Virus genome (UHGV): UHGV-0278671
DNA: 27,730 nucleotides
Source: a virus
Direction: 5' to 3' (one strand)
Part shown: in pieces, positions 1,704 to 20,393 of the stretch
How positions within the stretch are numbered: the first letter of the stretch is position 1
Layout of the letters: every line of letters starts with the position of its first letter
Position numbers and translations under genes: made by a program
Notes under the pieces: model-generated
What the model saw: only the letters and a program-made list of their open reading frames with translations
Database searches by the model: none
Told to the model about the DNA's origin: nothing

Positions 1704-1931
1704 ATGAAGCAATGGCTCATCATAATTGCTGTTTTTTTGCTCATTTACACTATTTTCCCAGCATTAAAAGCACCAATGCAAATAATTTCACTAGCAATAA
1801 TTGCGATTAGTGCTTTCATTGCAGTAGCCGTACTTGTGTTTAAGGTTTTAAAGTTTTTAGTTTGGCTATCAAAAGATGATGGATGCAAAGTTCATCAAGA
1901 AAAAGAAGGCAAAATAACCAAAGTTGACTAA
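1704..1931 (+). CDS. Small two-transmembrane protein with charged C-terminus (holin-like topology)
   Basis: GGAGG 5 nt before ATG; two hydrophobic helices (LIIIAVFLLIYTIF and IISLAIIAISAFIAVAVLVF) followed by a KDDGCKVHQEKEGK tail. Confidence 0.5.
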   Translation: MKQWLIIIAVFLLIYTIFPALKAPMQIISLAIIAISAFIAVAVLVFKVLKFLVWLSKDDGCKVHQEKEGKITKVD

Positions 1932-4051
1932 CTGTCACTAGCGAGCCATGTAATAATCCCCGTGCGGGCAATGGTTTTTGCTTCATCTGTTGATAAGGTT
2001 TTCTCCCATCTCTTAAATGCCCCAGATTGCATCAGTTTCCTTTCTATTACGCGTCTCACTTCTGCTCTGTCTACTGGTGCGTTTTGCAGGCGAAATAGCA
2101 TTGATTTAAACTCAGGAGAAGACAGTAGAGCATCAGCAGCCTTTATCCTGCTTGTTTTCCCTGACATCAATGCGGACGTTATCACCCCTGTTGCACCTAC
2201 ACCAGGAAGACCAGATAAGCTTGTAACACCTTCCGCCGCAGCAGCTTTTGAGGCTATTCCATAAATTTTTGCTAGACTACCCTTTTCCTTCAGAAAGTTA
2301 TTAACTTGCTGATCCACAAGGCTGCTAGCATACTGCTTACCAGTATTGAGTCTATTCATAGCCTTGGCTGCTTGATAAATCGTATCAAGGCGCTTTGATG
2401 CATCTGTGCCAATAGCATCACGGAGAGCCTTCATATTGGCCCCATTGCGTGACATTCCGTTATACCATTTTACAAATCCATCAACCCCTAATTGCTGACC
2501 TGGTGATTTAGCATAGCTGGTAAATGCTTTATTCATTGAGGTGAGAGCAACTTCCTGCCGCATATCCTTTGGAATCGACTTCATTAATTGCCTAAAGTCG
2601 CCACCGTTTCCTTTTGCCATATTAACAACGGCACTTTCAACTTTTGGAATTGCTGATTGCTGAAGTTTTCTACCCAAGACGGTTACAGCATCATCTTCAA
2701 TGGATTTTCGTTTTTTTACCAACTCCTTACCAAGCGTCCATAACTCCCCTGCGCCATATTTTTCTGCGACAGCCTGTTGGTCATCTGTTATGGCTGCATA
2801 TAACTTTTTAAGAACACCTGTTTCTTCATCCTTGAATGGGCCAGAGCCTTTGCCAATAGCTTGCCCCACCTGCTTTCTAGCGAGATCTAAACGCCCATAC
2901 GTTGGCAAGGTGTTTGGATCAAGTCGGTTCAATGTCCGCTTCATTATTGGAGATAATTCATCAATTCCCCCTATGTCATCAGCAAAATCCTCTAAAAAAT
3001 TCAACGTATTAGTTGCCTCAATCCGGTCTCTTACCGGAACCTTTTCGGCAATTTTGTTGTAGATGTTATCTGACTGATTTTGTAATGATGAAATGGTTTT
3101 ATCAAAATTATCTGCAAGCCTGTCAGAAACCAGTTGCTTATCAAGGCTTCCCCCAAATGAAGTTATCATTTCATCAGCTTTTCTTCCTAATTCAGTAATA
3201 AAACGCTTATGCGCCTCACTAATCTCCGTTCCAGGAAGACTTGCCACTGCATTATCAAGAGCCCTGACAGCAGGATTATTAGAGATCATGCCTGGAGTGG
3301 CATAATTTTCCAGTTCTAGCTCACGGATGGCATTTATCGCGTTAAAATCAGGATTAACTTCATCGGCGAAACCTTGAATAGCTCGTTGCCCGCCAATAAA
3401 TTTATTATCCATTGCGCCAGCAGCTTTCTTTAACGTTGCTTTAGATGATTTACTACCCATCCCTACGGATGAGCGATAAATATCTCCGGCACTATTTTTA
3501 ATTTTTCCTGCAATCTTCCCAAGCGCTGGACCAACAATCTCTGCTACAGGGCCAGCCACAGCGCCAATAGCAGCGCCGGAAGCAACATCGCTATTTGTTC
3601 CATTGGCTACAATAGCCCCTTCTCCAGCACCAAGCCCTGCGGCGGCAGCCAGCCTTGCCGCCCCTTTCGGAACCTGAGAAATAATCCCACCACCACTAAC
3701 AAATGGCGCTGCTTGTCCAACGAACTCACCAACATCTTGTGCGGTTGATGGTTTTGCCGCTAACTTCTGCTGTAGAGACTGAATTGCGGCTTGCTCTTCT
3801 GGTGTCATATCCTGAAATAGACCAACACCTTTACCAACATCCATCAATCCACTGAGAACGCCATACATAAAACGGTCGAAACCGTTAGCATTATTAACAA
3901 CATTTTCCTGTCTGGAATTTTCCTCTGGTGAAACCAAAGGTGATTGCTGCTGCTCTGGTTGGGAATCAAGCACAAAACCATCAGGAAGCTGTGAGTTATC
4001 AGGCTGATTATCGAGAACAAATCCTTCGGGTAAACCTACATCGGTTGCCAT
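1928..4051 (-). CDS. Putative DNA injection/ejection protein (P22 gp16 position), 707 aa
   Basis: Last large gene of the late operon; N-terminal tandem LP(E/D)GFVLD(N/S)QP repeats and Ala/Gly-rich stretches; assignment is by position in the P22-like gene order. Confidence 0.5.
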
Positions 4052-5379
4052 TGTCCGTTCCTATAAATGAGTTTCTGACCAGTTTTAGGGTTCGTTGCCG
4101 TCGCGCCTTCTGATATCCCACTTGGCGCAGCTTTTGTCTGCCCATTACCACCTTGTGGTGTAGGCTGCGCTGTGACATCGTCAAATAGCTTGGCCTTCCT
4201 TCTCCCTAAGCTTTTTTTCAGCCCTTGAGGAATAGTATCTCCATACGTATCCAGATATTCGTCTACCTGCTGGTTAAACTGCTGCCCCATAGCGTTGGCG
4301 TTAATTTTGGCTGCGTTAACAATGTTATCCCTCGCTTCCTGTGACAAGCCATTCCCTGCATTAAGCTGGTCTACATATCCTTTTATCTGCCCCCATATGC
4401 CATCAGAGCGCATGACCTGAACCTGTTCACCTTCGCGAACAACTGACTGAGGGTCGAGAGACTTCATGTAATTAAAGATAATCCCAAGTTGGGCAGCGCC
4501 AGTATTTACCTTGCTAAGGGCTTGCAGAGAGTTTGCCGCCGCTCTGACAGAGTTATAATTTTTGCCAAAATTGGTAATGTCAGAATTTAATCCCTTAATT
4601 AAGTCTGCTGACGGCTTACCTTTTTGCCCCAGCTCCATTAGCTTCACCCCCATCTCATCTGAGTGCATTTGTGCCCGCTGAGCCCTGTCTAGTTGAGCGT
4701 TTTGGATATTTGCCCATCCTCTCACGTTCTCCATGTCAGCCTGACGGATGCTTTCATCCAATCGCCCTTTCTCTAGTTGGCGACCAACCATCTTATCCTG
4801 ATAATCCAGCATTTTATCAGGACCAACAGCCCCTAGCGTCATAGTAGTCAGCATGTGTGATAGCTGCTCTGGATTCTGGATACCTGTCTGAATCATCCAG
4901 TCAGCATTAGCACCAACGCGATTTAACCTGTCCTTGTTGTCAGTAATGAATTTACTGTAGGCTTCCGGTCCCTGAGAAAGAGCGACGTTAGCCCTCATGG
5001 CTAAATCGCCCATATCGTTGCGTTGCTGCTCATTAAGACCGGAAAACGCCTGTTGTGCCTGTGCAACAAACGCTGGATTTTCCTTGGCAAACTTAAATAG
5101 TCCCGATGGATCACCAGAAGCCCATGCATCAGCGTGAACCTTATTGAACGCACTAATCGCTTTCTGTTGCTGTTCCTGATTGTAAATATCAGCAACTCCA
5201 GCCAGACCACGTAACGCGGTCAGACCAACGTTATTTGCACCTGAGCGAGCCAACTCATTGTTTTCGCGGATCAGACCAAGCGTTGCGTTAATGTCGCTTG
5301 CCTTTGGCGCATTCTCATTTTGCGTACCGATGCCAGCCAGAAAACCACCAGAATTAATACCCTGTTGCCAAGTAGCCAT
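4036..5379 (-). CDS. Putative DNA injection/ejection protein (P22 gp20 position), 447 aa
   Basis: Follows the tail-needle gene; Gln/Asn/Ala-rich like internal ejection proteins; positional inference. Confidence 0.5.
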
Positions 5380-5389
5380 TGATTACCCC

Positions 5390-5764
5390 TTAAAACAGCG
5401 AACCAAGCAGACCAAGACCAGCACCGATAACCTCATCCAGCAAGTAATCAACATCGCTACGCAGTACGACTATCTTCCCTTCGGCAGTTGTTAACCTGAC
5501 CTCAAGTAGATTTATCGCTTTTGTGTTTGCGGTGATTCTTGCGTCGTGATCAGCCAGTTCGACATCCTGTTCATCGTTTTTCACCTGAGCATCGTAAGCG
5601 CCCTGACCAGCCTGATTTGCCTTCCCGGCAATTGCGCCGACATCAGCCCCCTGATTAATGACATACAGCAGGTAAGACTGGCTGAATATATTGCGTGGCA
5701 AAATTGAAGCATCAAGCCGCGTAGCCTGAACCACAACAGGTGTATTGAGATTCGAATCAGCCAT
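5390..5764 (-). CDS. Tail needle protein (P22 gp26-like), unusually short at 124 aa
   Basis: [73 protein letters not shown] matches the P22 gp26 N-terminus as remembered; start is the internal ATG at 5764 overlapping the gp10 stop. Confidence 0.6.
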
Positions 5765-6754
5765 TACTCGATCCTTATCTGGCAGCCTGACAGAGTGACA
5801 GGTGACTTCGTGATAACGCGCAATCTGAAGCCGACATTTTTCCTGATGCGCCCGACACGCTTCCACAAAACGCGCTTGTCGTAAACGAACGGTTCATTCT
5901 GCTCAATCATCTGCTCACGACCGTAATTGATGCCGTCAGTGGTTGCAGAGAGAAAAAGTCGGTCAGCATACTGCGCAACGCCAGTTGACGATTCAACTTC
6001 AAGGTCGAAAACTCTGGCGTTATCCGCTTTGAACAACGGAGTAAACAGCAGGTGTTCCTGCTGCTTGTCGTACTGGCTGCTGATATCGAACTGCAATTTC
6101 CCGGTAACAGATTCCAGCTTATCGCCGCACGTTATCTGATTGCCTTCGTAAATGAAGTCGATAGCGCGGTACACATCGTCATACAAGCCAGTTTTCAACA
6201 CACACCATTGCGGACCATTGGCGCTTGAAGATGCGTCGTACACGAGGACATGATGCGGAAGGTGGATAATCAGCAACTCATGAGCATCAAATCGCAGAGA
6301 CTCCATCACGCCATCAGCCAGTTCATCAGCAGTGTAGGAGCGGAGGATTTTCTCAATGCTCGCGCTGGCGATTGGTGACACCTGACCGGAGCCGATGATG
6401 TATACAGACGGCGCACCTGTTGCCGGATTGCTGATGAACGCATAAGAATCAGCGAATGGCGTTTTGCAGTACACGACCACTTCCGGCAACATCACCGACT
6501 TCACTTTCTCCTTTGTACAGCTTGCCGCCACACACGCGATAAACAGCACTCTGCGCCATGTTGTACTCAACTCCGCGCGATACGCCGTTCACATCAGAAC
6601 GTTTGGCAATGCCCGGGAATGAGCGAAGATATCCGCTGCTGTTCAGGATTTCTTTGGGTGTAGCCAACATATTCACTGGCAGATAGTCGATATAGTCGGC
6701 GTTTCTAAAGTCTTTGCCGACACCTTTCATAAGCGGAAGTTGCTGAATCGGCAT
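5764..6754 (-). pseudogene. P22 gp10-like tail accessory gene, disrupted by an internal deletion and frameshift
   Basis: 6449..6754 encodes a gp10-like N-terminus (MPIQQLPLMKGVGKDFRNADYIDYLPVNMLATPKE...); 5764..6570 encodes a gp10-like C-terminus from YCKTPFADSYAFISNPATGAPSVYIIGSG in another frame; junction near 6470, about 130 codons missing. Confidence 0.6.
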
Positions 6755-6763
6755 TTATTCACC

Positions 6764-7225
6764 TCACGTACTCGGATCATCTTTCTCGATGTAAAACCGA
6801 TTCCACGTAAACGCGCTTTTGTTACCACTACCGCGAGGCATATCATTTCGCCGCTCAAGTGGTGGTATTTTGGTTAAAGCGATACAGATTGTTTGATATG
6901 CACTGTCAGCAGCGGTAAGGAGAGCGTCTGACGGCTGAATGACGTTATCCATGCACACTTGCACAGCGAGTTTCAAAGCGACGCCATCATTTGCCCATGC
7001 AGGGATACCTGAATCATCGTCAGGTAACGGCATGATGCCGTTTTCTGTATCAGCAAACTGATACCCAAGCTCGATACCTTTCGCCTGCCATGCTGCCATC
7101 ATGTCTTCGAGGTCATTAATGGCATCTTCAATTGCCTGAGGGTCAGCATCTGTCAACGTGGCATTGGAATACAGCCCGGCTTTTCGTAAAGCCTTTAGAA
7201 CGAGATCACCCTTCGTTTTCGCCAT
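6764..7225 (-). CDS. Head completion/tail accessory protein (P22 gp4-like)
   Basis: MAKTKGDLVLKALRKAGLYSNATLTDADPQAIEDAINDLEDMMAAW resembles P22 gp4 as remembered. Confidence 0.7.
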   Translation of the reverse strand: MAKTKGDLVLKALRKAGLYSNATLTDADPQAIEDAINDLEDMMAAWQAKGIELGYQFADTENGIMPLPDDDSGIPAWANDGVALKLAVQVCMDNVIQPSDALLTAADSAYQTICIALTKIPPLERRNDMPRGSGNKSAFTWNRFYIEKDDPST

Positions 7226-7394
7226 CTTCTTCCGCCTTAGCCACTTTTTGCTTCGTTGCGGTTTCTTCAGGAGTTTTTACCCAACCTTTTTTCAGGTGAG
7301 ATTTAACTTCTTCGTCATCAACAATGATGTAATCGACAGCAAACTGACCACAGGTGATCATGTTGCCAGGCTTATAGAGCATTGTTCGTGCCAT
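7206..7394 (-). CDS. Small hypothetical protein (62 aa)
   Basis: GGGAG 6 nt before the internal ATG at 7394; ORF track extends to 7433. Confidence 0.35.
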   Translation of the reverse strand: MARTMLYKPGNMITCGQFAVDYIIVDDEEVKSHLKKGWVKTPEETATKQKVAKAEEDGENEG

Positions 7395-7406
7395 TATCTT
7401 CTCCCA

Positions 7407-7430
7407 ATAAAAATGGGGCCGAAGCCCCAC
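7407..7430 (-). terminator. Rho-independent terminator after the coat gene
   Basis: On the minus strand: GGGGC-UUCG-GCCCC hairpin followed by AUUUUUAUU, directly after the coat stop. Confidence 0.5.
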
Positions 7431-7435
7431 CAAAA

Positions 7436-8527
7436 TTACTGCCCGGCAATAACGATGCCCGTATATTCAGGAACAAGTACAGAGCAACCGTACAGGGTGG
7501 TGAAACGCGCAGTGGTTACACCTTTGATGTGGTCGAAGGCGTAAGACATGATCAGCGTAGCGCCCTGCTCGGTGGTTGCTGTCATTACCTGTGGACCCTG
7601 ACCAGTCGGGAACGCCAGCTTGCCGTACATCAGTTCAACAGAACCATCAGCCCAGAACAGGTTAGCCGGTGCGGCATTTTTGTTGAGAATGGTGATTGCT
7701 GCGCCACTTGCCGCATTAGCATCAACGTTTGCATATGGTCGGCTGGCGACATCCGCGTTGTCAGGCGGCAGAATTTTCGGTGAGATAGTTACTGTCGTTC
7801 CGCTTACTGCCAGAACGCGGAATACCTGCGGCTGCCCGGTGGTATCTTTGGTGATCTGGTGTACAGAATTCACCCCTGCGATGGTAAACGCATCGCCAAC
7901 CTGCAAACCTTCAGCAGATACCGTAATGGTCCCCTGTCGGTTATCCACTGGCATATCGTTAGCATCTTTGGCTTCAACCTTGTGCGCAGGTGCTGCTGCC
8001 AGCGTAATGGAAGTTGCTATACCCTTCGGAACACGACCAGAAATATCGGTCTTGTAGCTATCGAAGGACGCAACCGGAGGGATTTGCGCTTTTTCGTATG
8101 CTGTCAGGGTTGTGCCCTGAGCATAGGCACGGTGACCAAGCTCGCCAGCAAGGTCTTTGTAGTTGAAGGGGTTCCAGAAAGAGCGACGGTTGATACCCTG
8201 AGGTACACCAATCGCCGTCATGGTGGCATCAATACCTGCCGCACAGTTCCACAAATCACGGCCCTGTGAACCTGTGGTTGAGTCAGCCATCGTGATCACG
8301 TTAGTAGCACGCTGCGTAACCATGGAAATCAGGTCAGAGTCAATCTGTGCAGCAAGGCGCATACCTGCGGCGCGACCAGCTTCAGTTTTATGTTCCGGGT
8401 CACGCATTTCACGCGCATCCAGAGTGTACAGAATGTTTTTCGGCTCCTTGAACACAGAAGGAACAAGGCGCTGAACCAGTGCTGTTGGCGTTTTGCCGCT
8501 GAGGTCTAGGCCTTCCTCAATGTTCAT
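7436..8527 (-). CDS. P22-like major coat protein, probably missing its N-terminal ~50 residues
   Basis: FWNPFNYKDLAGELG, RPYANVDAN and LFWADGSVEL resemble P22 gp5 segments (from memory); the ORF begins where P22 coat residue ~55 aligns. Confidence 0.6.
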   Translation of the reverse strand: MNIEEGLDLSGKTPTALVQRLVPSVFKEPKNILYTLDAREMRDPEHKTEAGRAAGMRLAAQIDSDLISMVTQRATNVITMADSTTGSQGRDLWNCAAGIDATMTAIGVPQGINRRSFWNPFNYKDLAGELGHRAYAQGTTLTAYEKAQIPPVASFDSYKTDISGRVPKGIATSITLAAAPAHKVEAKDANDMPVDNRQGTITVSAEGLQVGDAFTIAGVNSVHQITKDTTGQPQVFRVLAVSGTTVTISPKILPPDNADVASRPYANVDANAASGAAITILNKNAAPANLFWADGSVELMYGKLAFPTGQGPQVMTATTEQGATLIMSYAFDHIKGVTTARFTTLYGCSVLVPEYTGIVIAGQ

Positions 8528-9864
8528 GTGGTAGCGACGTTGCTCGGCATGTTCTCAAGCTGCGACGCACCTGTAATTTGCTGAATAGCCGTTCCGGTGT
8601 ACTGCAATAGCCCAGCAAGAGCAGGAGGCATTTGTGTCGGAGGTGTCCAGCCAGCAACCTGAGCCTCTGAAATGACCGTTCCGTTTTTGTCCTTCTTGCT
8701 GGTCATGGGAAGAACTGCAGGTCTTTTCTTATTCCTCTCTGCCCAGTGATTCATTAATGGACCGGGAATGAAATCAACATCCACGATAGGAATGCCATCG
8801 CCGCCAGCCTGAGTAGCGTTATCTGCAATCATGGAAACCATCAGGTTCTCAAGACGCTGTGCATCCATCGCTTTTGCTGCGTGGCCTTCGATTCGCTCCT
8901 GATTATCAACAAATGAACGACGCCCATATACCGGGATGAGAGGAATATGTTCGCCCGGAATACGCTTCGGTTCTTCCAGCCATTCAGCGCCAGACAGAAG
9001 ACCGCAATAAACTCGGCGTTTCTTCACCGTTCGCTCGCCAATCAGTTCGAATGCACCATCGGTCAGCTCGTCGACAATATCTTTGATTTGCTCTTCATCA
9101 TAGATTGCCGTTTCTCCGCTGACAGGGTTACGCCATGCTGTGAGCTTTACCTTCTCTATGCGGACTTCGTAGTAGCGTCCAACATAGATGGCGTCAGGCG
9201 TTGACCAGTCATACTGAGTACCAGTGTCATCACGAGAAAGGCTTGCCGCGATGGAATCAGGGTATTCAGCCTCGAACGCTTTAGGCGTCATGGAGAACAT
9301 TTCCATAGCCCACATGGCATCAGAGCGGTCATATTGCTTGCTGTCCTGATCGAAGAAGACGCATGTCGCCGGGTCGTAAACAGGAAGAAGGCTGATGCGT
9401 CGCTGCTCGTTACTCGGATCCATTTCATCTTCGTAATCAGCGCACATGCGGAAACAACCGAATCCGCCCGTTACAGCATCATCAAATGCGTTATCACACG
9501 CTTCGCCACCGGATGTTTCCTGATAATCAGCGCGGAATTTGCCGTTCATCTTTTCGGCTAACGCTTCCGATGCCTTGTCATCCTTCGGCCTGAATTTAAC
9601 GCTGATGCGATTCTGTCGATACTCGCCAATGATGCGATCACATTCACGGGCAATCTTATTCAGTTCAAAGCGCGGGTAATGCTCAAACCTGCCTTCATCA
9701 AATGAGTAACCAGCGTTTGTGCTGCCTTCCCACTGTGCGCCGGACACCCGGACGAAACGTTGAGCCTCAATAATCTGCTTACGCATATCCTGCGTTGCTG
9801 ACCAGGCATTATCAAAGTTGCACAGCACCTTGCGATGCCAGTCAGTCATCTTTTTTTCTGCCAT
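8524..9864 (-). CDS. Portal protein (P22 gp1-like), apparently C-terminally truncated (446 aa versus ~700)
   Basis: KKRRVYCGLLSGAEWLEEPKRIPGEHIPLIPVYG matches the P22 portal IKRRRVY...AGEHIPIVPVFG region as remembered; the ORF ends where crown/barrel domains would follow and abuts the coat gene with no scaffold gene between. Confidence 0.6.
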   Translation of the reverse strand: MAEKKMTDWHRKVLCNFDNAWSATQDMRKQIIEAQRFVRVSGAQWEGSTNAGYSFDEGRFEHYPRFELNKIARECDRIIGEYRQNRISVKFRPKDDKASEALAEKMNGKFRADYQETSGGEACDNAFDDAVTGGFGCFRMCADYEDEMDPSNEQRRISLLPVYDPATCVFFDQDSKQYDRSDAMWAMEMFSMTPKAFEAEYPDSIAASLSRDDTGTQYDWSTPDAIYVGRYYEVRIEKVKLTAWRNPVSGETAIYDEEQIKDIVDELTDGAFELIGERTVKKRRVYCGLLSGAEWLEEPKRIPGEHIPLIPVYGRRSFVDNQERIEGHAAKAMDAQRLENLMVSMIADNATQAGGDGIPIVDVDFIPGPLMNHWAERNKKRPAVLPMTSKKDKNGTVISEAQVAGWTPPTQMPPALAGLLQYTGTAIQQITGASQLENMPSNVATT

Positions 9865-9865
9865 A

Positions 9866-10837
9866 TCAACCTACACCACAAGGAATTGAGTAACTGGAAT
9901 AGTCGGGTTGCGCAGCCGACTCCGGGCAATGCATACACATCATCAGCGCATCAGCCAGGTTAGGAGATGGAATACCGAGCTTCTGCTTCATTTCGACCTT
10001 AGTCATAAGCTCCAGCTTCCCGTTGTTATTGAATTTGCGCTGAATCTGCGTCAGTTCTGCAAACAGCTTCTCCAGCATCTTCTCGCCTATCGCTTCTTTG
10101 TCGAAGCTCAGCATGTCGTCTGGGTCTGCATACTCACCGTGGACAACCGCCCGATATGTCAGATACAGCCTGTCAGCCAGCGCGTAATAGAATTGCGCTC
10201 GCTTATTGCGGAACACATCGCCAATAGTGCGAACGTTGTCGCCCTGTACGACTTCATCGGCCCATGCTCCGGCCTGATATGGTGCATCTTCATCGAATGG
10301 CGATTCGCTACCCTTGAACATCGTGGCGGTGATTTTCTTGCCGGAGAACGCTTCCGTTGTCTGTCTGCGCAGCCCTGCACCGACACCATCGCCATCCCAC
10401 AGGTAATGGTCAGCGCCGTCTTCAATCGCCAGCGAAGTTGCCCAGTCAGCACCCTCGTTGATGTCCATCAGCAGACCTTCGGCAATGCGCTTAACTACCG
10501 AACCGTGACGCGATGCATAACCTTTAGCATCTGGCCCTGTATCTGACGGGTCATGTGCAGAGACAACAGCGCCTTTCGCTTTCCATCCGAGTTTCTTGTG
10601 CGCATCGGTTGCGGATTCAAGCCATTCACGTTTGATGATTGCCATATCACTTGCGCTTACTGGATCACCAAGCCAGATGTGACGATACAGTGTCGGATTT
10701 CTACGTTTACACTCTTCCATCTCCAGACGGAGAACTTCAGGAAAGTGCGGGTTCCCGGATCTACGCTCTCCATGAACTTCGCTATTACGCTGCTCATGCG
10801 CTTTTCCAGACGACCTGAATAAACCCATGCGCCCCAC
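9866..10837 (-). pseudogene. Terminase large subunit, C-terminal nuclease-domain fragment; ATPase domain absent
   Basis: Reading from about NPHFPEV... HIWLGDPV... AHDPSDTGPDAKGYA... SPNLADALMMCM looks like a terminase C-terminal domain; no Walker A region; directly upstream of portal. Confidence 0.6.
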
Positions 10838-10902
10838 AGTTCAAGCCAGCCATTCAGCCACTCATGCTGTTCTTTGGTGAGGTTTAGTTCTCTTATGCCC
10901 AC
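10657..10902 (-). pseudogene. Q: N-terminal fragment of a Q-type late antiterminator (WGAW family)
   Basis: First ~47 residues ([47 protein letters not shown]) resemble the Q82/QuuD-family N-terminus (WGAW motif); the remainder looks like read-through and overlaps the terminase fragment. Confidence 0.45.
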
Positions 10903-11564
10903 GCGCCTTCTCCCTGTACCTGAATCAATGTGAGGTTTCCGCAGAACACTGCGCCGGTATCGATATACATCTGGTTGGCAAACTTGAGTGGTTTCACTGC
11001 TGGCGTATGACCAAAGATGAACGTGTCCGCTCCTTTGATTTCTTTCACGATCCCGTCTTGTGAGTTGCTGATTCGTTCGCGGTTCCAGATTACCTGCTGA
11101 TGGTCAACTGGCTTTCCAAATTCGTATTCGTCACAAGGATAATCGGCGTGGCAGATGACATATTTTTTACCTTCGCTCACCAGTTCGATGATTAACGGAA
11201 GTTCATCTGCTTTATGGGAAAGAGCTTTAGCCAGAATTTCTTTGTCGTAATCGAGATTAAAGAACCAGCCACCGCCATTAAACAGCCAGTGATTGACGTT
11301 TCCACGCTCTGATAAGCCATCAATCATCATTTGCTCATGGTTTCCACGTACAGCTCGGAACCAGGGGAATGTGATTAATTCCAGACATTCGACGTTCTCT
11401 GTACCGCGATCGACCAAATCGCCAACCGAGATAAGCAGGTCTTTGTTGGTGTCGAATCCTATCGTCTCCAGTTTTTTCATCAGGTTCGTGTAGCATCCGT
11501 GCAGATCGCCAACTACCCAAATAGTTCGGTATTTGCTGCCATCAATTCTTTCGTAATAGCGCAT
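10893..11564 (-). CDS. ninI: Ser/Thr protein phosphatase (lambda PP / NinI)
   Basis: Near-identical to lambda phosphatase as remembered ([29 protein letters not shown]...GDLVDRG...GNHE...), ending GEGAWA; start is the internal ATG. Confidence 0.9.
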
Positions 11565-11748
11565 CTCTTTCACTCCATCCGCGATGAACCATGAGAACGT
11601 CGTTGACGATGGCGTGCATTTTCCCGTCTTTATCATCAACGTATTTTCTGACCGTACCGCGACTACATTTCAGTCTGCGTGCTACTTCTGTCTGGTTTCC
11701 GTATGCTTCAACGAGCATGTCTGGAATGGTTTTTACTGAGAACGTCAT
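11542..11748 (-). CDS. ninH: NinH
   Basis: 68 aa [37 protein letters not shown]... matches lambda NinH as remembered. Confidence 0.85.
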
Positions 11749-12356
11749 GCGGCCTCACTTCTGCTATTTCGCAGGTCTTTGAGTTTCTGTTGGTACTCTG
11801 CCTTGATCGCCTTGCACTCTTCGATAGTCCAGCGATGGCGGTTATGGTTTGATTCGATTTCGTCTACTGCTTCCTGCCCGATACGGCTAATCAGTTCGAC
11901 GCGATACGGAACGAGATTTCCGCTTTTGTGCTGGTTGCACACCACGCATTGCTTGTGAATATTGCGTTCATCAAATCGGAGTTGAGGTGCCGCAGCAGTT
12001 GTCCGGTAATGTCCGGCATCCCACTGAGCAGACGTGAGCGTTCCGCACGAGATACATGGTAAGTCGCGGTCTCTTTCTCTGATGAAGGCGTTTACGGCTT
12101 GTTGGGCTTGTTTAATCCAGTAACTGCGGGGCTTTAAGGCGAGTTTTCGAATCTTCAGTTTATCTTTCTGTTTCTGCTCCTCTCGTCGTAGTTTCTTCTC
12201 TGCTGCTTTTTCCGCTTTTTCGCGTTCTTTACTTCGTCGTTCGAGTGCTATCTTTGTTCCACACTCTGGAGAGCACCACCACTGATTAGCGAATGCAGGG
12301 TGAAACCATTCCCGACATTCACCGTTTTTACATCGTCTTCGTGCTGGTTTAGCCAT
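11745..12356 (-). CDS. ninG: NinG (Rap) recombination protein
   Basis: 203 aa [33 protein letters not shown]... matches lambda NinG as remembered. Confidence 0.9.
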
Positions 12357-12531: not shown

Positions 12532-13465
12532 CCTCCATACAAACTTTCACGAATGCCGTTGCTACTTCTGCATTGATTGCGTTTCCATATCCAATAATTC
12601 GCTGATCTTGATTGCGCTTTGCCATTCTTCCCAGTGTGGACTTGCCTCGTCCCAAGCTTTTGGCAATGCCATTAACCATCGGGAATGAGCCGGGTCTAAC
12701 TGGACGATATTTTTCATCTCTACAGTAAAGCCAGTCTGCATCTCTCCAGAAGCCGTTAACCGGTAATGGGTACATAGCTTCACCGTCCCGGGAAGTTTCA
12801 AGCAGATTCTTGGGGTTCCGCTCTTGTCTTTTCCGCTGTAGCAATGCGTTGAACCTGTTGCATCGTTCGCTAAAGGAGTTTGCCATCCCGCTAGTCTCAC
12901 GCATCCAGATAGGTTCTGAATTCCCCTGCGTGTCTCTGGCTGAAAGTTGATATTTGTCGTTGGAGTAGGCCACCCAATACAATCGCTGCCTGATGTGCGG
13001 AGAACCGAAGCCCGCAGCGCAAATATCGGTACCTGCAGAGGTGTAGTTCGCACCTTCCAAGTCAGTTTGTACAAGGTCGAGCCAAGCGAGGCCGTCTGCG
13101 CTTGCAACCTGTTCGCCAATAACGATGCCAGGATTGCATTTTTCAATAAGCCAGAAGAATGCCGGCCATAAGTGCCGCTCGTCATCAACCCCTTTTCCTT
13201 TGCCTGCCGAGCTGAAAGGTTGGCATGGGCAACTTCCTGTCCAGATACTCTTGTTGTCTGGCCATCCTGCTTTTCTAAGTGCATAGCTCCAAACTCCGAT
13301 TCCTGCAAAAAAGTGGTGCTGGGTAAATCCTCGCAAATCACCTGGTGTGACATCTTCAATACTCCTTTCATCTACATACCGTCTGTCGCTGTTGTATGCA
13401 CTGCTCAGCGGCTTTTTCCACCCACGGTCTGATATTGCTGTACGGTGGGTTATTCCAGATTGCAC
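12518..13465 (-). CDS. DNA (cytosine-5)-methyltransferase-like gene, atypical; true start uncertain
   Basis: Motif I FFAGIG, motif IV GSCPCQPFSSAGK, ENV-like IVIGEQV, motif VIII PHIRQRLYWVAY, motif X-like GYGNAINAEVATAF. Only ~25 residues separate motifs I and IV; the first ~33 codons overlap the Dam fragment; a second long ORF (12562..13371) overlaps in another frame. Confidence 0.55.
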   Translation of the reverse strand: MQSGITHRTAISDRGWKKPLSSAYNSDRRYVDERSIEDVTPGDLRGFTQHHFFAGIGVWSYALRKAGWPDNKSIWTGSCPCQPFSSAGKGKGVDDERHLWPAFFWLIEKCNPGIVIGEQVASADGLAWLDLVQTDLEGANYTSAGTDICAAGFGSPHIRQRLYWVAYSNDKYQLSARDTQGNSEPIWMRETSGMANSFSERCNRFNALLQRKRQERNPKNLLETSRDGEAMYPLPVNGFWRDADWLYCRDEKYRPVRPGSFPMVNGIAKSLGRGKSTLGRMAKRNQDQRIIGYGNAINAEVATAFVKVCMEVVNA

Positions 13466-13652
13466 CGTGGCTTATCCACTCAGAATTTAGCGCGTCGTCG
13501 GCCTCAGTTAACCAGTGAGCGCACAGAGCATTTTTGTCGCTCGCTGCCGAATCCAGCCAGAATCCAAACTCAATATCCAGTGCATCAAAAAGCCAAAGCG
13601 GCGTTTGCCAGCAGTCCTTGTCGTGTGCTGGCGTATTTGATTTGATAGTCAT
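13368..13652 (-). pseudogene. Phage Dam-type N6-adenine methyltransferase, N-terminal fragment
   Basis: DKDCWQTPLWLFDALDIEFGFWLDSAAS...WNNPPYS matches the phage Dam family pattern; the ORF stops ~25 codons after NPPY; ATG overlaps the ninB stop (ATGA). Confidence 0.55.
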
Positions 13653-14089
13653 GCAGCCCGATCTCCCCATCTCGCTTTCCACTCCAGAGCCAGTCTCGCT
13701 TCGTCTGACCACTTAACGCCACGCTCTGTACCGAATGCCTGTATAAGCTCTAATAGCTCCGCAAATTCGCTTACACGCATCCTGCTGGTTGACTGGCCTA
13801 TTACCACAAAGCCATTCCCGGCAAGGTTAGGAACAACGTCCTGCTGCTTTAATGCTGCGGTAAACACACACTTCCAGCTTTCTGCATCCAGCCAACGCCC
13901 ATGCCATTCAACCTGACGAGAGACGTCACCAAGGCAAGCCCAAAGCTTTCGATTCTGGTCTAAGCTGCGGTTGCGCTCCTGAATGATCACTACGATTGGC
14001 TTGGTTGGGTCTGGAAGGATTTGCTGTACCGCGTGAATAGCGTTTTGCTGATGTGCCGGAGATCGAATTTCAAAGGTTAGTTTTTTCAT
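13649..14089 (-). CDS. ninB: NinB recombination protein
   Basis: 146 aa from the internal ATG (MKKLTFEIRSPAHQQNAIHAVQQILPDPTKPIVV...), near-identical to lambda NinB as remembered. Confidence 0.9.
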   Translation of the reverse strand: MKKLTFEIRSPAHQQNAIHAVQQILPDPTKPIVVIIQERNRSLDQNRKLWACLGDVSRQVEWHGRWLDAESWKCVFTAALKQQDVVPNLAGNGFVVIGQSTSRMRVSEFAELLELIQAFGTERGVKWSDEARLALEWKARWGDRAA

Positions 14090-16154: not shown

Positions 16155-17015
16155 TCACCTGTCGAAAAACACGTAGCCAGTTTTCGATACGGTGATTGCG
16201 GATGATGGTTTGGATTGTGGTTGAATAGTTTCTGGCTTCTCGTCGTTCCAGCGTTGACCGTTCAGGTAGCTCGATGGTAACAACCTGTCGAATCCGAACT
16301 GCTTACCATTCCTGCATGCGATGTCTTCTGCCAGCATCGTGGCAAACTCGCTTGCCGTACCCCTGGTAGTTTTACGCCATTCCCTGAACTGTGTTCTGAA
16401 TGCCGAAGCTGCGTTTTTCTTCCCGGCTTTCCGCATGCCTGCACACCAGAATATTTCCTCGAATGCCTTGTCGGTTTCTTCGTGACGGTCATGTGATTTT
16501 TCACACTCCGTCCGAACACTTTCGGACATAGTGTTTTTATTATTTCTTTTTTCTTTTGTAATAGTTTCTTTTGTGTGTCCCTGTTTTGGTGACAGCGCTG
16601 TCACCGTTTTGGTGACACTTTTTGTCACCAATGCAGTGACATTATCACCAGAGTAGTGACACCCTTCGATTTGCCATTCTTCGATGTTCTTGTTAGGCCC
16701 GATTTGCTGGCCTTCGCGAAGGATAACCTTCATCGCGATAAGCTCATTCTTGGCCTTGTTTACCTTCTGTCTTGGCAGCCTGGTAATTTGAGCTAACTGA
16801 CTATCAGAAATGCGATCCATCTTTTTACCGTAGCCGTATGTTTTACGGCATATGGCGTGGGCAACCTTGCTCTGATTTTTCGTTAAATCTGCGCCGATAA
16901 GCTCTTCATACAGGGCATTTGCAAGACGGGTATAACCATCTTCAACTTCTGCCACACGACGCTCCACAGGCCGTTGTGAAGGCCTTAAATGTGTTACGGT
17001 TGCAAGATTACTCAT
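16155..17015 (-). CDS. Replication initiator (lambda O-like) with the origin inside the gene
   Basis: Position after cII; AAGGAG Shine-Dalgarno; the iteron array is translated in frame as a repetitive [18 protein letters not shown] linker. Confidence 0.75.
16524..16664 (-). repeat. Replication origin: four iterons plus adjacent AT-rich tract
   Basis: Iterons with GGTGACA/TGTCACC inverted cores at 16584-16605, 16606-16630, 16631-16650 and 16651-16664; AT-rich tract 16524-16580. Confidence 0.7.
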
Positions 17016-17166: not shown

Positions 17167-17241
17167 GGATTGATCCAGTAATGACCTCAGAATTCCATCT
17201 GGATTTGTTCAGAACGCTCGGTTGCCTCCGGGCGTTTTTTA
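17167..17241 (+). ncRNA. oop: oop antisense RNA overlapping the cII 3' end
   Basis: Plus strand gattgatccagtaatgacctcagaattccatctggatttgttcagaacgctcggttgcctccgggcgtttttt closely matches lambda oop as remembered; CATAAT -10 at 17152-17157; hairpin plus T6 terminator. Confidence 0.6.
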
Positions 17242-17480
17242 TTGGTGAGAATCGAAGCAACTTGTCGTGCCAATCGAGCCATATCGTCGTCGACGACGCC
17301 CCATTCAAGAACAGCAAGCAGCATTGAGAACTTTGGAATCCAATCCCTCTTCCACCTGCTGATCTGCGACTTATCAACTCCCACAGCTTCCGCTGTCTTC
17401 TCAGTTCCAAGCATTGCGATTTTGTTAAGCAACGCACTCTCGATTCTTAGAGCCTCGTTGCGTTTGTTTGCACGAACCAT
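17187..17480 (-). CDS. cII: CII transcriptional activator
   Basis: 97 aa [51 protein letters not shown]... essentially lambda CII; lambda-like leader taaggaaatacttacatATG; the ORF-track N-terminal extension is not used. Confidence 0.9.
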
Positions 17481-17538
17481 ATGTAAGTATTTCCTTAACA
17501 AATAAGAAGTTATGCGCATCAACTTATGCGCGTTGTAT

Positions 17539-17582
17539 TCCCGCATTTCGGCGGGAATGAGGACCATGACTGTTAAAGAGCG
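17539..17582 (-). promoter_or_regulatory. nutR: boxA CGCTCTTTAACA plus boxB hairpin
   Basis: On the minus strand between cro and cII: boxA cgctctttaaca (17571-17582) and boxB tcccgccgaaatgcggga (17539-17556), identical to the nutL copy. Confidence 0.6.
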
Positions 17583-17588
17583 GTGTTA

Positions 17589-17783
17589 CTATTTGTTTTT
17601 CTTGTTGCTTGGGAAAGGACGAACTTCCTCTCCAATCACACTGCCATCAGGCTTTACCGTAACCATGATGTTACGGCCTGCCAGAATGGCCTTGCTGATA
17701 GCGCACTGGATTACACCAAAGTCACTGGCTGCTTTAGCCTGTCCATGGATTTTGGCGTAATCGGCAAGTGTCATTCGAATCAT
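17589..17783 (-). CDS. cro: Cro repressor
   Basis: 64 aa [62 protein letters not shown] aligns with lambda Cro; GGAG 7 nt before ATG 17783. Confidence 0.85.
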
Positions 17784-17812
17784 ATGCACTCTCCGTTATT
17801 AACCATGAACAA

Positions 17813-17883
17813 AGAATACTACAGGTATTCAAAGCAATCAATACTCAGGGTATTTTTAGTTTAAGTACCTTAGCTATTAGAAT
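17813..17883. promoter_or_regulatory. OR operator region with divergent pR and pRM
   Basis: Operators AATACtacagGTATT (17815-17829), AATACtcaggGTATT (17840-17854), degenerate AGTACcttagCTATT (17864-17878). pR on minus: -35 TTGATT 17836-17841, -10 TATTCT 17813-17818. pRM on plus: -10 TAGAAT 17878-17883, ending ~7 nt before the cI ATG (near-leaderless). Confidence 0.6.
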
Positions 17884-17889
17884 TAAGCT

Positions 17890-18606
17890 ATGGAAAATAA
17901 AAAATCACTGACGACAGAACAGCTCGAAGACGCTAAGCGGCTTAAGGCTTTGTATGAGTCAAAAAAGAAAGAATTGGGGATAACCCAATACTCAATCGCT
18001 GATGAACTGGGTATCACCCAAGGAGCGGTAGGGCATTATCTTAATGGCAGAAACGCGCTAAACGTTGAGGTTGCATCTGGTTTTGCACGACTGTTGCAAG
18101 TCTCAATTGCTGATTTTAGCCAGTCAATTGCTGCCAAGGTTGCAGAACAGGCAGAAAGCCTTAAGAGCGATGCCAACGTAAGGTATGCAGGGGAATACAG
18201 AGCAGGAAAGAGGTATCCGGTGTTAAGCAGTATCCAGGCTGGCTCGTGGTGTGAAGCATGCGAACCATACACCATTAAAGACATAGATGTTTGGCTTGAG
18301 TCTGACGCGCATATTCAAGGTAATGCGTTCTGGCTTAAAGTGGAAGGTGATTCAATGACGGCACCGGTTGGGTTAAGCATTCCAGAGGGAACATTCGTTC
18401 TTTTCGATACCGGAAGGGAGGCGATCAACGGCAGCTTGGTCATAGCAAAACTTTCTGACTCTAACGAAGCAACATTCAAGAAGCTGATAATCGACGGCGG
18501 AAATAAATACCTTAAGGGACTTAATCCTGCATGGCCTCTCGTGCCAATCAATGGAAACTGCAAGATTATAGGCGTTGCAATTGAGACAAAACTAAGGCTG
18601 GTTTGA
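17890..18606 (+). CDS. cI: CI repressor (HTH plus LexA-like self-cleaving C-terminal domain)
   Basis: N-terminus LTTEQLEDAKRLKALYESKKKELGITQ and HTH; C-terminal FWLKVEGDSMTAP...FKKLI matches lambda CI FWLEVEGNSMTAP...FKKLI (catalytic Ser/Lys context). Confidence 0.9.
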   Translation: MENKKSLTTEQLEDAKRLKALYESKKKELGITQYSIADELGITQGAVGHYLNGRNALNVEVASGFARLLQVSIADFSQSIAAKVAEQAESLKSDANVRYAGEYRAGKRYPVLSSIQAGSWCEACEPYTIKDIDVWLESDAHIQGNAFWLKVEGDSMTAPVGLSIPEGTFVLFDTGREAINGSLVIAKLSDSNEATFKKLIIDGGNKYLKGLNPAWPLVPINGNCKIIGVAIETKLRLV

Positions 18607-18623
18607 TCACGCAAGGGGCGATT

Positions 18624-18992
18624 ATGGTTGGAACCGCTATAGCAAGCTTTTTTGGGATGTTGGCAATCTCGACAATTTACGGCTTAGCGCATGCTTTTAT
18701 TGCGAAATCTCTATCAGAAAAAATAAGCCAGGCTTGGGCGCATAGATCAGCTCGTTTCATGATTCTAGTGATCATAGCAATACAAGGGATATCTGCATTT
18801 ATCCTCTATGGTTCAAGCTTATACCTGTTGTATCAAGGCGCGACATTTACGCCTTACACCAGTGATTACGGAACTCTATACGATGGTAGTGAAGACATCT
18901 CTATGGCTTGGATTGTCTTTGGTTTATCTATGGCCGTGTCTGTTGTAGCAGATATCATTAAGGTAATTCTCGTCTTAACCTTCGCTGACTAA
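18624..18992 (+). CDS. Polytopic inner-membrane protein co-transcribed with cI (rexB/sieB position)
   Basis: AAGGGG 6 nt before ATG 18624, 18 nt after the cI stop; about four hydrophobic helices in 122 aa; no similarity to lambda RexB recognised. Confidence 0.55.
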   Translation: MVGTAIASFFGMLAISTIYGLAHAFIAKSLSEKISQAWAHRSARFMILVIIAIQGISAFILYGSSLYLLYQGATFTPYTSDYGTLYDGSEDISMAWIVFGLSMAVSVVADIIKVILVLTFAD

Positions 18993-19123
18993 CCTATAAT
19001 CCCGGCAGCAATAGCTATCGGGATCCACTTCACATATCCCGCATAAAAAGCACTGAACAAGCAGACACCGAAAAAATAAATATCCTTTGTATTCATTTAC
19101 TTATCATTATTTCATCAAAAATA

Positions 19124-19165
19124 AATACCTTGGGTATTTACACAATAAAATACCTACAGTATTCT
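19124..19165 (+). promoter_or_regulatory. OL operators overlapping pL
   Basis: Perfect operators AATACcttggGTATT (19124-19138) and AATACctacaGTATT (19149-19163); -35 TTTACA 19137-19142, 17-nt spacer, -10 TATTCT 19160-19165. Confidence 0.6.
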
Positions 19166-19211
19166 TTAGCCATCAGCAGGACGCTGGTAGCCAAACGGAA
19201 CATATTGGCAG

Positions 19212-19252
19212 GCTCTTTAACATTGATGGGATTGTCCCGCCGAAATGCGGGA
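19212..19252 (+). promoter_or_regulatory. nutL: boxA GCTCTTTAACA plus boxB hairpin
   Basis: boxA 19212-19222 matches the rrn-type boxA consensus; boxB tcccgccgaaatgcggga 19235-19252 (5-bp stem CCCGC/GCGGG), identical to nutR. Confidence 0.6.
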
Positions 19253-19359
19253 ACCAAAGAGTAGTTGGCTTTGGGGTGACGTGAAGTGCAGCTGCACGAC
19301 GGCAACCGGAAGATAAGCACCCGGCGCGTCACCTCCAAAGTCAATCATCGGAGATCAAC

Positions 19360-19632
19360 ATGACAGTAGTCATTACATATCTGGCTGACGATAACACCAG
19401 AAATCGCCGCAGAGCACGCAGACAGGCTCAACGTGAACAGGCAATGCAAGAGCAGCGACTGGCGCGAAAAATTGCGCTAAAGCTCTCTGGTTGCGTCAGA
19501 GCAGACAAAGCAGCATCACTCGGAAGCCTTCGCTGCAAGAAGGCAGATGAATGCAGTGGAAGTATTTGCCTGCCAGAAGTTGCGCTTTTCGCAGCTGGTC
19601 ATCGTACAAGTAAGCAGGTTACAGCGAGGTAA
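19360..19632 (+). CDS. N: N-type antitermination protein
   Basis: Arginine-rich motif NTRNRRRARRQAQREQ near the N-terminus; C-terminus LPEVALFAAGHRTSKQVTAR resembles P22 gp24 as remembered; first gene after pL/nutL. Confidence 0.75.
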   Translation: MTVVITYLADDNTRNRRRARRQAQREQAMQEQRLARKIALKLSGCVRADKAASLGSLRCKKADECSGSICLPEVALFAAGHRTSKQVTAR

Positions 19633-19635
19633 GTG

Positions 19636-19860
19636 ATGAATCAGACATACATTCCATCATGCTTGAGAAATCTGCCAAAGCAGAAAGCAAAGCCCCGCAA
19701 GCAAGCCATAAAGGACGCTAAGGCAGAGGTTATTGATCAAGCAATACAATTGCTCAGGGAGGAGTTAAGAAGTGGCAAGCTCGAAGGAATGATGATGCCC
19801 TATCAGCGCGGATATCTATCGGCGATTAGTAAGTTGGAAGTATTGAAGAGTGAATTATGA
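19636..19860 (+). CDS. Hypothetical protein (74 aa)
   Basis: Starts immediately after the N stop; GAGG 7 nt before ATG 19636. Confidence 0.4.
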   Translation: MNQTYIPSCLRNLPKQKAKPRKQAIKDAKAEVIDQAIQLLREELRSGKLEGMMMPYQRGYLSAISKLEVLKSEL

Positions 19861-19922: not shown

Positions 19923-20393
19923 ATGACAAAATCATGGAGCGTACCTTTTCCTGAATCAGAAACTGAACATGATGGAATGCCTGTTTTCTGGAGATTCCAG
20001 GCGACAGTTGAAGAAGATGGGATAAAAATATTCGCACTTCAATATATAGCTTTTCATCAGACAGAGCATTATGCATGGTTGGTTCCTGCGCATTGGATTG
20101 TTAATTTTAAACCAGCACCAAATCAGTGGTTACAGGAATGGAAACAAAGGAGAAATAGATATGCAATTAAGAAAGTAGCAAAAAATGCAGAAAGATCTTT
20201 TGCATTCCCAACGAAGAAACTTGCCATTGAGAGTTTATTGCGCCGGAAGAAATACCATTTAATGAGAATCAAACAAGATTTGGCTGTTGTATCAACTCTT
20301 GTTGATGGGATGAAGAATATTGATACATCAACACCAGATATTGAATATAACTTTGGACACAACCAAGAAACAGAAAATTGGGTATTCTACTAG
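19923..20393 (+). CDS. Hypothetical protein (156 aa) in an AT-rich segment
   Basis: GAGGTGAG before the ATG; visibly lower GC than neighbouring genes; no recognisable motifs. Confidence 0.5.
   Translation: MTKSWSVPFPESETEHDGMPVFWRFQATVEEDGIKIFALQYIAFHQTEHYAWLVPAHWIVNFKPAPNQWLQEWKQRRNRYAIKKVAKNAERSFAFPTKKLAIESLLRRKKYHLMRIKQDLAVVSTLVDGMKNIDTSTPDIEYNFGHNQETENWVFY

Follow-up and report, generated by a model that had tools for sequence, protein, structure and literature searches.

The repressor-linked gene hkaS of an HK620-type prophage encodes a predicted inner-membrane protein and is a candidate for superinfection exclusion

The viral genome UHGV-0278671, a stretch of 27,730 nucleotides (nt) referred to throughout as the window, contains a lambdoid immunity region whose orientation is reversed relative to the usual lambda map (Table 1). 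We examined the open reading frame (ORF) that directly follows the cI repressor gene. A first-pass annotation, made from the letters of the window, had described it as a frame of 122 amino acids (aa) starting 18 nt after cI, and the coordinates, length and strand were all correct: the ATG is the 18th base past the end of cI. Positions 17500–19700 are 98.7% identical, over 94% of their length, to the immunity region of coliphage HK620, and the cI annotation in that region agrees with the window cI (98.7% DNA identity). The HK620 counterpart of the ORF is hkaS (AAK28867; 97.5% protein identity), annotated as ‘unknown’. The gene is thus not a new discovery, as the HK620 record, which we take to date from 2001, already names it without a function. 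The proteins of HK620, HK630, HK140 and mEpX2 are 97.5–99% identical to that of the window, and the PHROG 6534 profile matches it end to end (residues 1–122 of 122, E = 2.9e-79). Function is listed as unknown in every record of the family, PHROG 6534 included.

Table 1. Features of the immunity region, with positions counted from the first letter of the window.
Feature	Position	Strand	Basis and remarks
O	16155–17015	−	
cII	~17187–17567	−	
cro	17589–17789	−	Divergent from cI; HK620 annotation; PF09048 Cro called in homologous loci
OR1 (17815–17829) and OR2 (17840–17854)	17815–17854		Between cro and cI; HK620 annotation and operator pattern
Candidate pRM −10, TAGAAT	17878–17883	+	Inferred, read from the sequence; overlaps OR3 of the HK620 annotation
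cI repressor, 238 aa	17890–18606	+	HTH_3 and Peptidase_S24 (Pfam E = 5e-24 and 8e-10); first gene of the immunity operon
cI–hkaS spacer	18607–18623	+	17 nt; Shine-Dalgarno AAGGGG at 18613–18618, 5 nt 5' of the ATG
hkaS	18624–18992	+	ATG at 18624, TAA at 18990–18992; 122 codons; three predicted transmembrane helices; HK620 hkaS match, PHROG 6534, AlphaFold2, purifying selection
Hairpin AUCCCGG...UCGGGAU	18999–19024	+	RNA fold; 7 nt after the hkaS stop; no U-tract
Operator-like dyad AATATCCTTTGTATT, 15 bp	19079–19093		Coincides with tIMM of HK620 (window ~19074–19104)
OL2 (19124–19138), OL1 (19149–19163) and pL (TTTACA-17-TATTCT, 19137–19165)	19124–19165	+	
N antiterminator	19360–19632	+	Pfam N_peptide E = 1.3e-13; PHROG 271; first gene of the pL operon; downstream limit of the cargo slot

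Several lines of evidence indicate that this is a genuine gene. Copies of hkaS were found in 146/5426 complete E. coli genomes (~2.7%), where they are named ‘hypothetical protein’ throughout, and in 16 phage records, including HK630, HK140, mEpX2, HF4s, HZ41 and vB_EcoP-611R6; these records also cover two Stx2c-converting phages as well as phi296 and phi367. The family also occurs in a few prophages of Salmonella, Hafnia and Buttiauxella, while a search of a plasmid collection returned no copy. A word-indexed search of 5.8 billion proteins recovered 12 clusters, exclusively enterobacterial and reaching down to 52% identity, and across this range each full-length member has exactly 122 residues and the alignment is free of gaps. 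In the diverged loci, the proportion of non-synonymous differences (pN) was 0.09–0.36 against 0.49–0.88 for synonymous differences (pS), with synonymous sites mostly saturated, and the ratio of the two substitution rates (dN/dS) was 0.12–0.2 where dS could be measured. In a set of 80 IMG/VR loci (L094–L173, 79 of them with upstream DNA), the frame was intact in 80/80, and of the 31 codons that are polymorphic among its 33 DNA alleles, 15 change the amino acid. Considering the profile match, the preserved length and position, the low dN/dS and the intact frames, hkaS is a gene rather than a chance ORF, and it is under selection. We are highly confident that it represents a real membrane protein of the cI operon. 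The alternative that the frame is only a conserved 3' stretch of cI mRNA that is not translated, or a gene in decay, would fit a G+C content slightly below that of cI (41.5% vs 45.6%), yet such a reading is very improbable given a dN/dS far under 1 with saturated synonymous sites, 122 codons kept without insertions or deletions, frames intact in all of the IMG/VR loci, a Shine-Dalgarno sequence in all diverged loci and a confident AlphaFold2 model obtained from 6 sequences. Early in the gene lies a run of six T (18648–18653). A few database entries (P0005, P0007, P0009 and P0014) are shifted in frame from about this run and either return to frame later or end early; such alleles make up ~6 of ~640 database members and could be rare inactivations or sequencing errors.

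In all recovered loci with upstream DNA, the gene began 17–20 nt after a cI-type repressor gene (HTH_3 + Peptidase_S24) on the same strand, and the order on its 3' side was a hairpin, the OL operators and N. This arrangement was seen in Salmonella (L003–L006), in an unassigned metagenome contig (L007) and in Hafnia-type loci (L008–L011), and the IMG/VR loci had an intact cI 17–19 nt upstream in 79/79 cases. A Buttiauxella copy (L038) stood behind a cI of only 60% identity. In every locus that has it, hkaS is the only ORF between cI and oL, with no rexA-like neighbour; no conserved partner gene was found, and the genes after N vary between loci. It is firm that hkaS and one particular repressor lineage are passed on together as a module. 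Within this module HkaS diverges faster than its neighbours, being 50–61% identical between loci when cI is 86–89% and Cro 81–95% identical.

We consider it very likely, judging from the operon architecture, that cI and hkaS are co-transcribed, because the two genes are only 17–20 nt apart and a consensus scan picked up neither a promoter-like nor a terminator-like site between them. The sole promoter-like site that the scan reported on the + strand was pL. The candidate −10 element of pRM in Table 1 was not picked up by it; this element ends 7 nt 5' of the first base of the cI ATG, and this position, taken with what is known of lambda pRM, suggests that cI mRNA from pRM is leaderless, as in lambda. 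By contrast, hkaS has a strong Shine-Dalgarno sequence, which is kept in all diverged loci along with a spacer of 17–20 nt. Among the IMG/VR alleles its run of G varies from four to six (AAGGGG, AAGGGGG, AAGGGGGG), lengthening the spacer from 17 up to 19 nt in 16/79 loci, and this variation could tune translation of hkaS. In prophage NC-SV, the 3' end of cI has been described as the site of a small RNA, svsR (PMC12803456). We considered it as a pointer to another role of this region, although it could not be tied to the immunity type that carries hkaS.

The protein had been predicted to be polytopic, and this was borne out by hydropathy, which gave three hydrophobic segments (~3–27, 44–70 and 93–121), and by an AlphaFold2 model built from a 6-sequence alignment (predicted local distance difference test score 89.5, predicted template modelling score 0.76). 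The model has helices at 2–29, 31–38, 41–73 and 89–121 and a hairpin near 78–86, and its predicted fold bundles three transmembrane (TM) helices and adds a short helix on the cytoplasmic side and the hairpin on the periplasmic side. The first-pass annotation had counted about four helices, a number that stands for helices of any kind, although only three are transmembrane. That HkaS is an inner-membrane protein is firm as a prediction. Its predicted topology places the N-terminus and the hairpin in the periplasm and the first loop and the C-terminus in the cytoplasm, since all 7 diverged members obey the positive-inside rule: in each of them, loop 28–44 contains 3–5 lysine or arginine residues and loop 71–92 contains 0–1, along with 2–4 aspartate or glutamate residues.

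Conservation is distributed unevenly over this model. Invariant positions include G3 and G11, which with A or G at position 7 form a ladder of small residues in TM1, followed by S16 and Y19; K33, Q36, W38, H40, A43, R44 and F45 in and around the first loop; Q54; Y67, L69, Y70 and T74; W96 and F99; D110 and K113; and the C-terminal residues V117–D122 (VLTFAD). As S16, Q54 and D110 are each 10–12 residues from the cytoplasmic end of their own helix, we read them from the model as lying at about equal depth in the middle of the membrane. Mean pairwise identity was highest in the periplasmic half of TM1 (0.73), followed by the cytoplasmic loop helix (0.71), the inner half of TM3 (0.69) and the inner half of TM2 (0.65), and was far lower in the periplasmic hairpin (0.45), the outer half of TM2 (0.44) and the cytoplasmic half of TM1 (0.37, the lowest).

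Searches for relatives among known proteins returned the family alone. A profile of 6 family members run against 1.84 billion representative proteins found only the family itself, NCBIfam had no match to HkaS, and the 5027 defence-protein models of PADLOC-DB v2.0.0 gave no match at E <= 10. Pfam yielded sub-threshold matches to Cation_ATPase_C (19.2 bits, cut-off 27.3) and TssN (13.3 bits, cut-off 30.3), which we rejected as reflecting TM composition only. A sequence search of the PDB gave nothing meaningful (one match at E = 0.2, to a G-protein-coupled receptor), and Foldseek comparisons with viral models and the PDB gave nothing significant. The remote-homology comparison with known superinfection exclusion (Sie) and abortive infection (Abi) proteins, which had been proposed as a check, returned no relative through the family profiles of Pfam, PHROG and PADLOC. 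The observation that HkaS does not resemble RexB was upheld, as hhalign gave a probability of 0.8% against a RexB homologue and there was no Pfam or PADLOC match to RexB; homology to PDC-M53B, another membrane protein encoded behind a related repressor, was likewise rejected (0.25%). By sequence, HkaS is an orphan family without detectable relatives.

The first-pass annotation had put the gene at the ‘rexB/sieB position’. The interval from cI to oL/pL is indeed that of rexAB in lambda, while the reference to sieB was inaccurate, since sieB lies in the pL operon beyond N, where HK620 has hkaP, annotated as a putative superinfection exclusion protein. Surveying 80 loci that encode cI relatives (40–76% identity), we found the content of this slot 3' of cI to be highly variable, and 11 of the 19 distinct cargo proteins sampled matched known or candidate defence families. 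These included RexA + RexB (L014, behind a cI 76% identical to that of the window), BstA (L017, L052), PDC-M53A + PDC-M53B (L025), the HipA-like PDC-M03A (L059), PDC-S42 (L021), the DEDDh exonuclease PDC-S48 (L084) and PDC-M63B (L026, L054). The slot also held a 177-aa Tlde1-domain protein followed by a 71-aa protein with two TM helices in an Erwinia sp. (L039:4193–4935; Pfam E = 1.4e-29), which suggests a toxin with its immunity protein more than a classical gene for phage defence, as well as a DUF1275 membrane protein (L016), lipoprotein-like proteins (L065) and unknowns. Some of the large ‘cargo’, such as an MscS-like protein, is probably flanking host DNA. In an Ewingella sp. (L083:3991–4356), the slot after a cI relative holds a 122-aa protein with three TM helices and a zinc-ribbon motif in its middle loop; we rejected it as a relative of HkaS (zinc ribbon in the middle, hmmsearch E = 7), and it may represent convergence on small membrane cargo at this slot.

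That genes linked to cI serve as exclusion genes is a textbook idea, and the expectation that this would be a site for them held up, as RexA/RexB, BstA and PADLOC candidates were all found in the slot of cI relatives. The interval between cI and N has also been described as a mosaic hotspot with rexAB and bstA (PMC8585504, citing earlier mosaicism work). What is new here is modest: an orphan family, its strict tie to one cI lineage, and the finding of a dense hotspot of defence genes in the slot that follows related repressors.

Several known systems offer a comparison. Lambda RexB (PF15968, PDLC02340) is likewise a small polytopic inner-membrane protein encoded on the strand of cI, after cI and before oL/pL-N, and HkaS, too, is presumably expressed from pRM in lysogens. 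RexB differs in having 144 aa and four TM helices, against 122 aa and three for HkaS, and in having rexA beside it. In the PDC-M53 system, too, the slot that follows a related cI encodes a membrane protein, although this system consists of two genes and M53B has 195 aa and 4 TM helices. T4 Imm, HK97 gp15 and lactococcal Sie2009 are proteins of resident phages that act alone at the cytoplasmic membrane against DNA entry; Sie2009-type genes lie beside the repressor, and sieA, imm and gene 15 are located at other sites of their genomes. These are small membrane proteins without an enzymatic domain, as is P22 SieA, and HkaS, predicted to be in the inner membrane, is similar in this respect; it differs in that Pfam, PHROG and PADLOC revealed no homology to them, the sequences themselves not having been compared pairwise. 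P22 SieA acts alone at the cytoplasmic membrane, where it blocks DNA entry (PMC10883804). Another parallel in gene position is BstA of prophage BTP1, which is encoded downstream of the repressor, presumably from a shared promoter, and is highly expressed in lysogens (PMC8585504); its homologues occupy the hkaS slot behind related cI genes. BstA is otherwise quite different, as it is a soluble protein of ~300 aa that localises to sites of phage DNA replication, acts by abortive infection and has the self-immunity element aba, and it shares no similarity with the 122-aa membrane protein HkaS.

Because of the slot that hkaS occupies, an anti-phage role of some kind is the most probable class of function, and we consider it moderately probable. 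As for mechanism, we tentatively favour one in which phage genomes are kept from entering at the inner membrane, as HkaS is a single small membrane protein without a partner or soluble domain and much of its variable surface faces the periplasm, the side on which components of an incoming phage arrive. A stand-alone protein of this kind resembles the single-protein Sie factors more than two-component Abi systems. Under this proposal, hkaS would be the second and last gene of an immunity operon read from pRM/pRE through cI, so that HkaS would be made along with the repressor in every lysogen. Acting in the inner membrane, it would halt heteroimmune phages, which escape repression by cI, by disturbing translocation of their genomes across the cytoplasmic membrane, as P22 SieA, T4 Imm and HK97 gp15 do. 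The variable periplasm-facing half (57–66, 76–95) would contact incoming ejection or tape-measure proteins or a host entry channel, while S16, Q54, D110 and K113, the loop K33..Q36.W38.H40.A43-R44-F45 and the VLTFAD tail would maintain the fold, an oligomer or a host partner. The regions of low conservation do include the periplasm-proximal outer half of TM2 and the hairpin (0.44 and 0.45, against 0.65–0.71 for the loop, inner TM2 and TM3), which would be the expected look of an interface with incoming phage parts.

A number of observations weigh against an entry block. HkaS has no similarity to any known Sie, Abi or other defence protein in PADLOC, Pfam, NCBIfam or the annotated PHROGs, nor to any solved structure or viral structure model, and a search of 8 million papers under family names, accessions and phage names, together with the DefensePredictor supplements, yielded no functional data. 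TM1 shows the reverse pattern, its cytoplasmic half being the variable one (0.37) and its periplasmic half the conserved one (0.73), which speaks against a simple split into a variable periplasmic and a conserved cytoplasmic side, and the faster divergence of HkaS may simply reflect low constraint on lipid-facing residues. The slot also holds cargo that does not look defensive (the Tlde1-type toxin, DUF1275, unknowns). Finally, the immunity module is carried by podoviruses and siphoviruses alike and so offers no basis for a link to a particular injection machinery.

The same slot and the same membrane location could also serve abortive infection. Here HkaS would oligomerise into a RexB-like but self-contained ion or proton leak. 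The trigger would come either from the infecting phage or from a sensor, of host or prophage origin, encoded at another site; the membrane potential would collapse and the infection would be aborted at the expense of the cell. RexB and the 4-TM PDC-M53B share the slot in cI relatives, and the invariant charged or polar residues S16, Q54, D110 and K113 in mid-membrane, as well as the TM1 ladder G3-x3-(A/G)7-x3-G11, would suit a pore, since ladders of the glycine-zipper type promote helix packing and the formation of pores by oligomers. A face for gating or sensor docking would fit the cytoplasmic loop and the C-terminal tail, which are the most conserved surfaces, and the rare frameshifted alleles could reflect a cost of carriage; these are few, however, and could be sequencing errors at the T run. 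We consider this mechanism unlikely: hkaS is alone in the slot at every locus, with no RexA-like or other partner, and hhalign probabilities were below 1% against both RexB and PDC-M53B.

Alternatively, HkaS might act in the lysogen without any direct effect on other phages, modulating an inner-membrane protein of the host, which could be a transporter, a protease (such as FtsH) or a component of envelope stress or respiration, and thereby raising lysogen fitness or tuning the maintenance or induction of lysogeny. A conserved host membrane partner would fit the conserved cytoplasm-proximal half and the polar mid-membrane residues; part of the slot cargo is not recognisably defensive, and hkaS is intact in a window prophage that appears defective. 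For lambda RexB, too, effects on ClpP-dependent proteolysis that do not depend on rex have been reported. Even so, we found no homology to a characterised regulator or transporter subunit (the Pfam matches being sub-threshold), most of the sampled slot cargo (11/19) matches known or candidate defence families, and a distribution this narrow and patchy, together with rapid divergence, is more in keeping with a conflict gene than with a physiological modulator. A function of this sort appears rather unlikely, though it deserves to be kept in view beside the entry block that we tentatively prefer.

A further reading, a reasonable possibility that falls short of probable, is that HkaS founds a new family: a stand-alone, sensor-less membrane immunity protein of 122 aa and three helices that would protect lysogens alone, either by closing the inner-membrane route that several unrelated types of phage use or by acting as a leak channel that triggers itself, and that would be hard-wired to one repressor lineage. 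If this were true, immunity and exclusion would be inherited as one module. The slot behind relatives of this one repressor holds at least 7 different known or candidate defence systems, and hkaS itself is present in laboratory phages (HK620, HK630, HK140, mEpX2), Stx-converting phages and ~2.7% of complete E. coli genomes. Phage exclusion by HkaS would be a minimal single-protein membrane mechanism with a bearing on phage therapy and on the ecology of Stx phages in E. coli; should HkaS not exclude phages, the gene would usefully show that location in this hotspot can mislead about function.

The hairpin directly after the hkaS stop was not called by a terminator scan, and it is a candidate for the 3' end, or a stabiliser, of the immunity transcript. 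A stem-loop is present right after the hkaS stop in every diverged locus (L003, L007, L008, L012), with a lineage-specific sequence and a clear U-tract only in L012; the window and the Hafnia-type loci share the stem ATCCCG...CGGGAT with different loops (AATA vs GAGA). Further on, the operator pattern AATAY-N5-6-KTATT has five occurrences in the window, every one at OR or OL. One of these is the dyad at 19079–19093, which is conserved in the diverged loci, while the OL3 of the HK620 record (window 19101–19117) departs from the operator consensus. By sequence, the dyad is probably the true OL3, and because it fits a pattern confined to OR and OL in the window, an operator is a likelier reading than a terminator for the tIMM feature with which it coincides. 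The labels tIMM and OL3 may therefore be swapped in the HK620 annotation. The gap between hkaS and OL is also filled by a hydrophobic 35-aa ORF on the − strand (18989–19096; MNTKDIYFFGVCLFSAFYAGYVKWIPIAIAAGIIG), which was considered as a convergent small toxin. This was rejected because the ORF starts within the OL3-like dyad and its frame runs into a stop after 10–12 codons in L003 and L008; it is probably not a gene.

Outside the immunity region, the prophage looks defective and appears to have many deletions across 1928–12356. A NinI-like phosphatase gene (10893–11639) abuts a C-terminal fragment of the large terminase (9866–10837), with no Q, lysis or small-terminase gene between the two; the P22-type ORFs for portal, coat, head-closure and needle proteins fall short of the length of their PHROG profiles; and what takes up 16.2 kb in phage CUS-3 is covered by 7.6 kb of the window. 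The immunity module, hkaS included, is intact in this remnant. Following N on the + strand are two ORFs of unknown function, 19633–19860 (75 aa, PHROG 5305) and 19923–20393 (156 aa, PHROG 1636). This position varies among phages with the same immunity module, and in HK620 it is taken by hkaQ and the putative Sie gene hkaP. On the − strand, the adjacent, overlapping ORFs 12562–13371 and 13368–13712 match the DNA methyltransferase PHROGs 1008 and 111, respectively, and could be one split or frameshifted methyltransferase or two separate genes.

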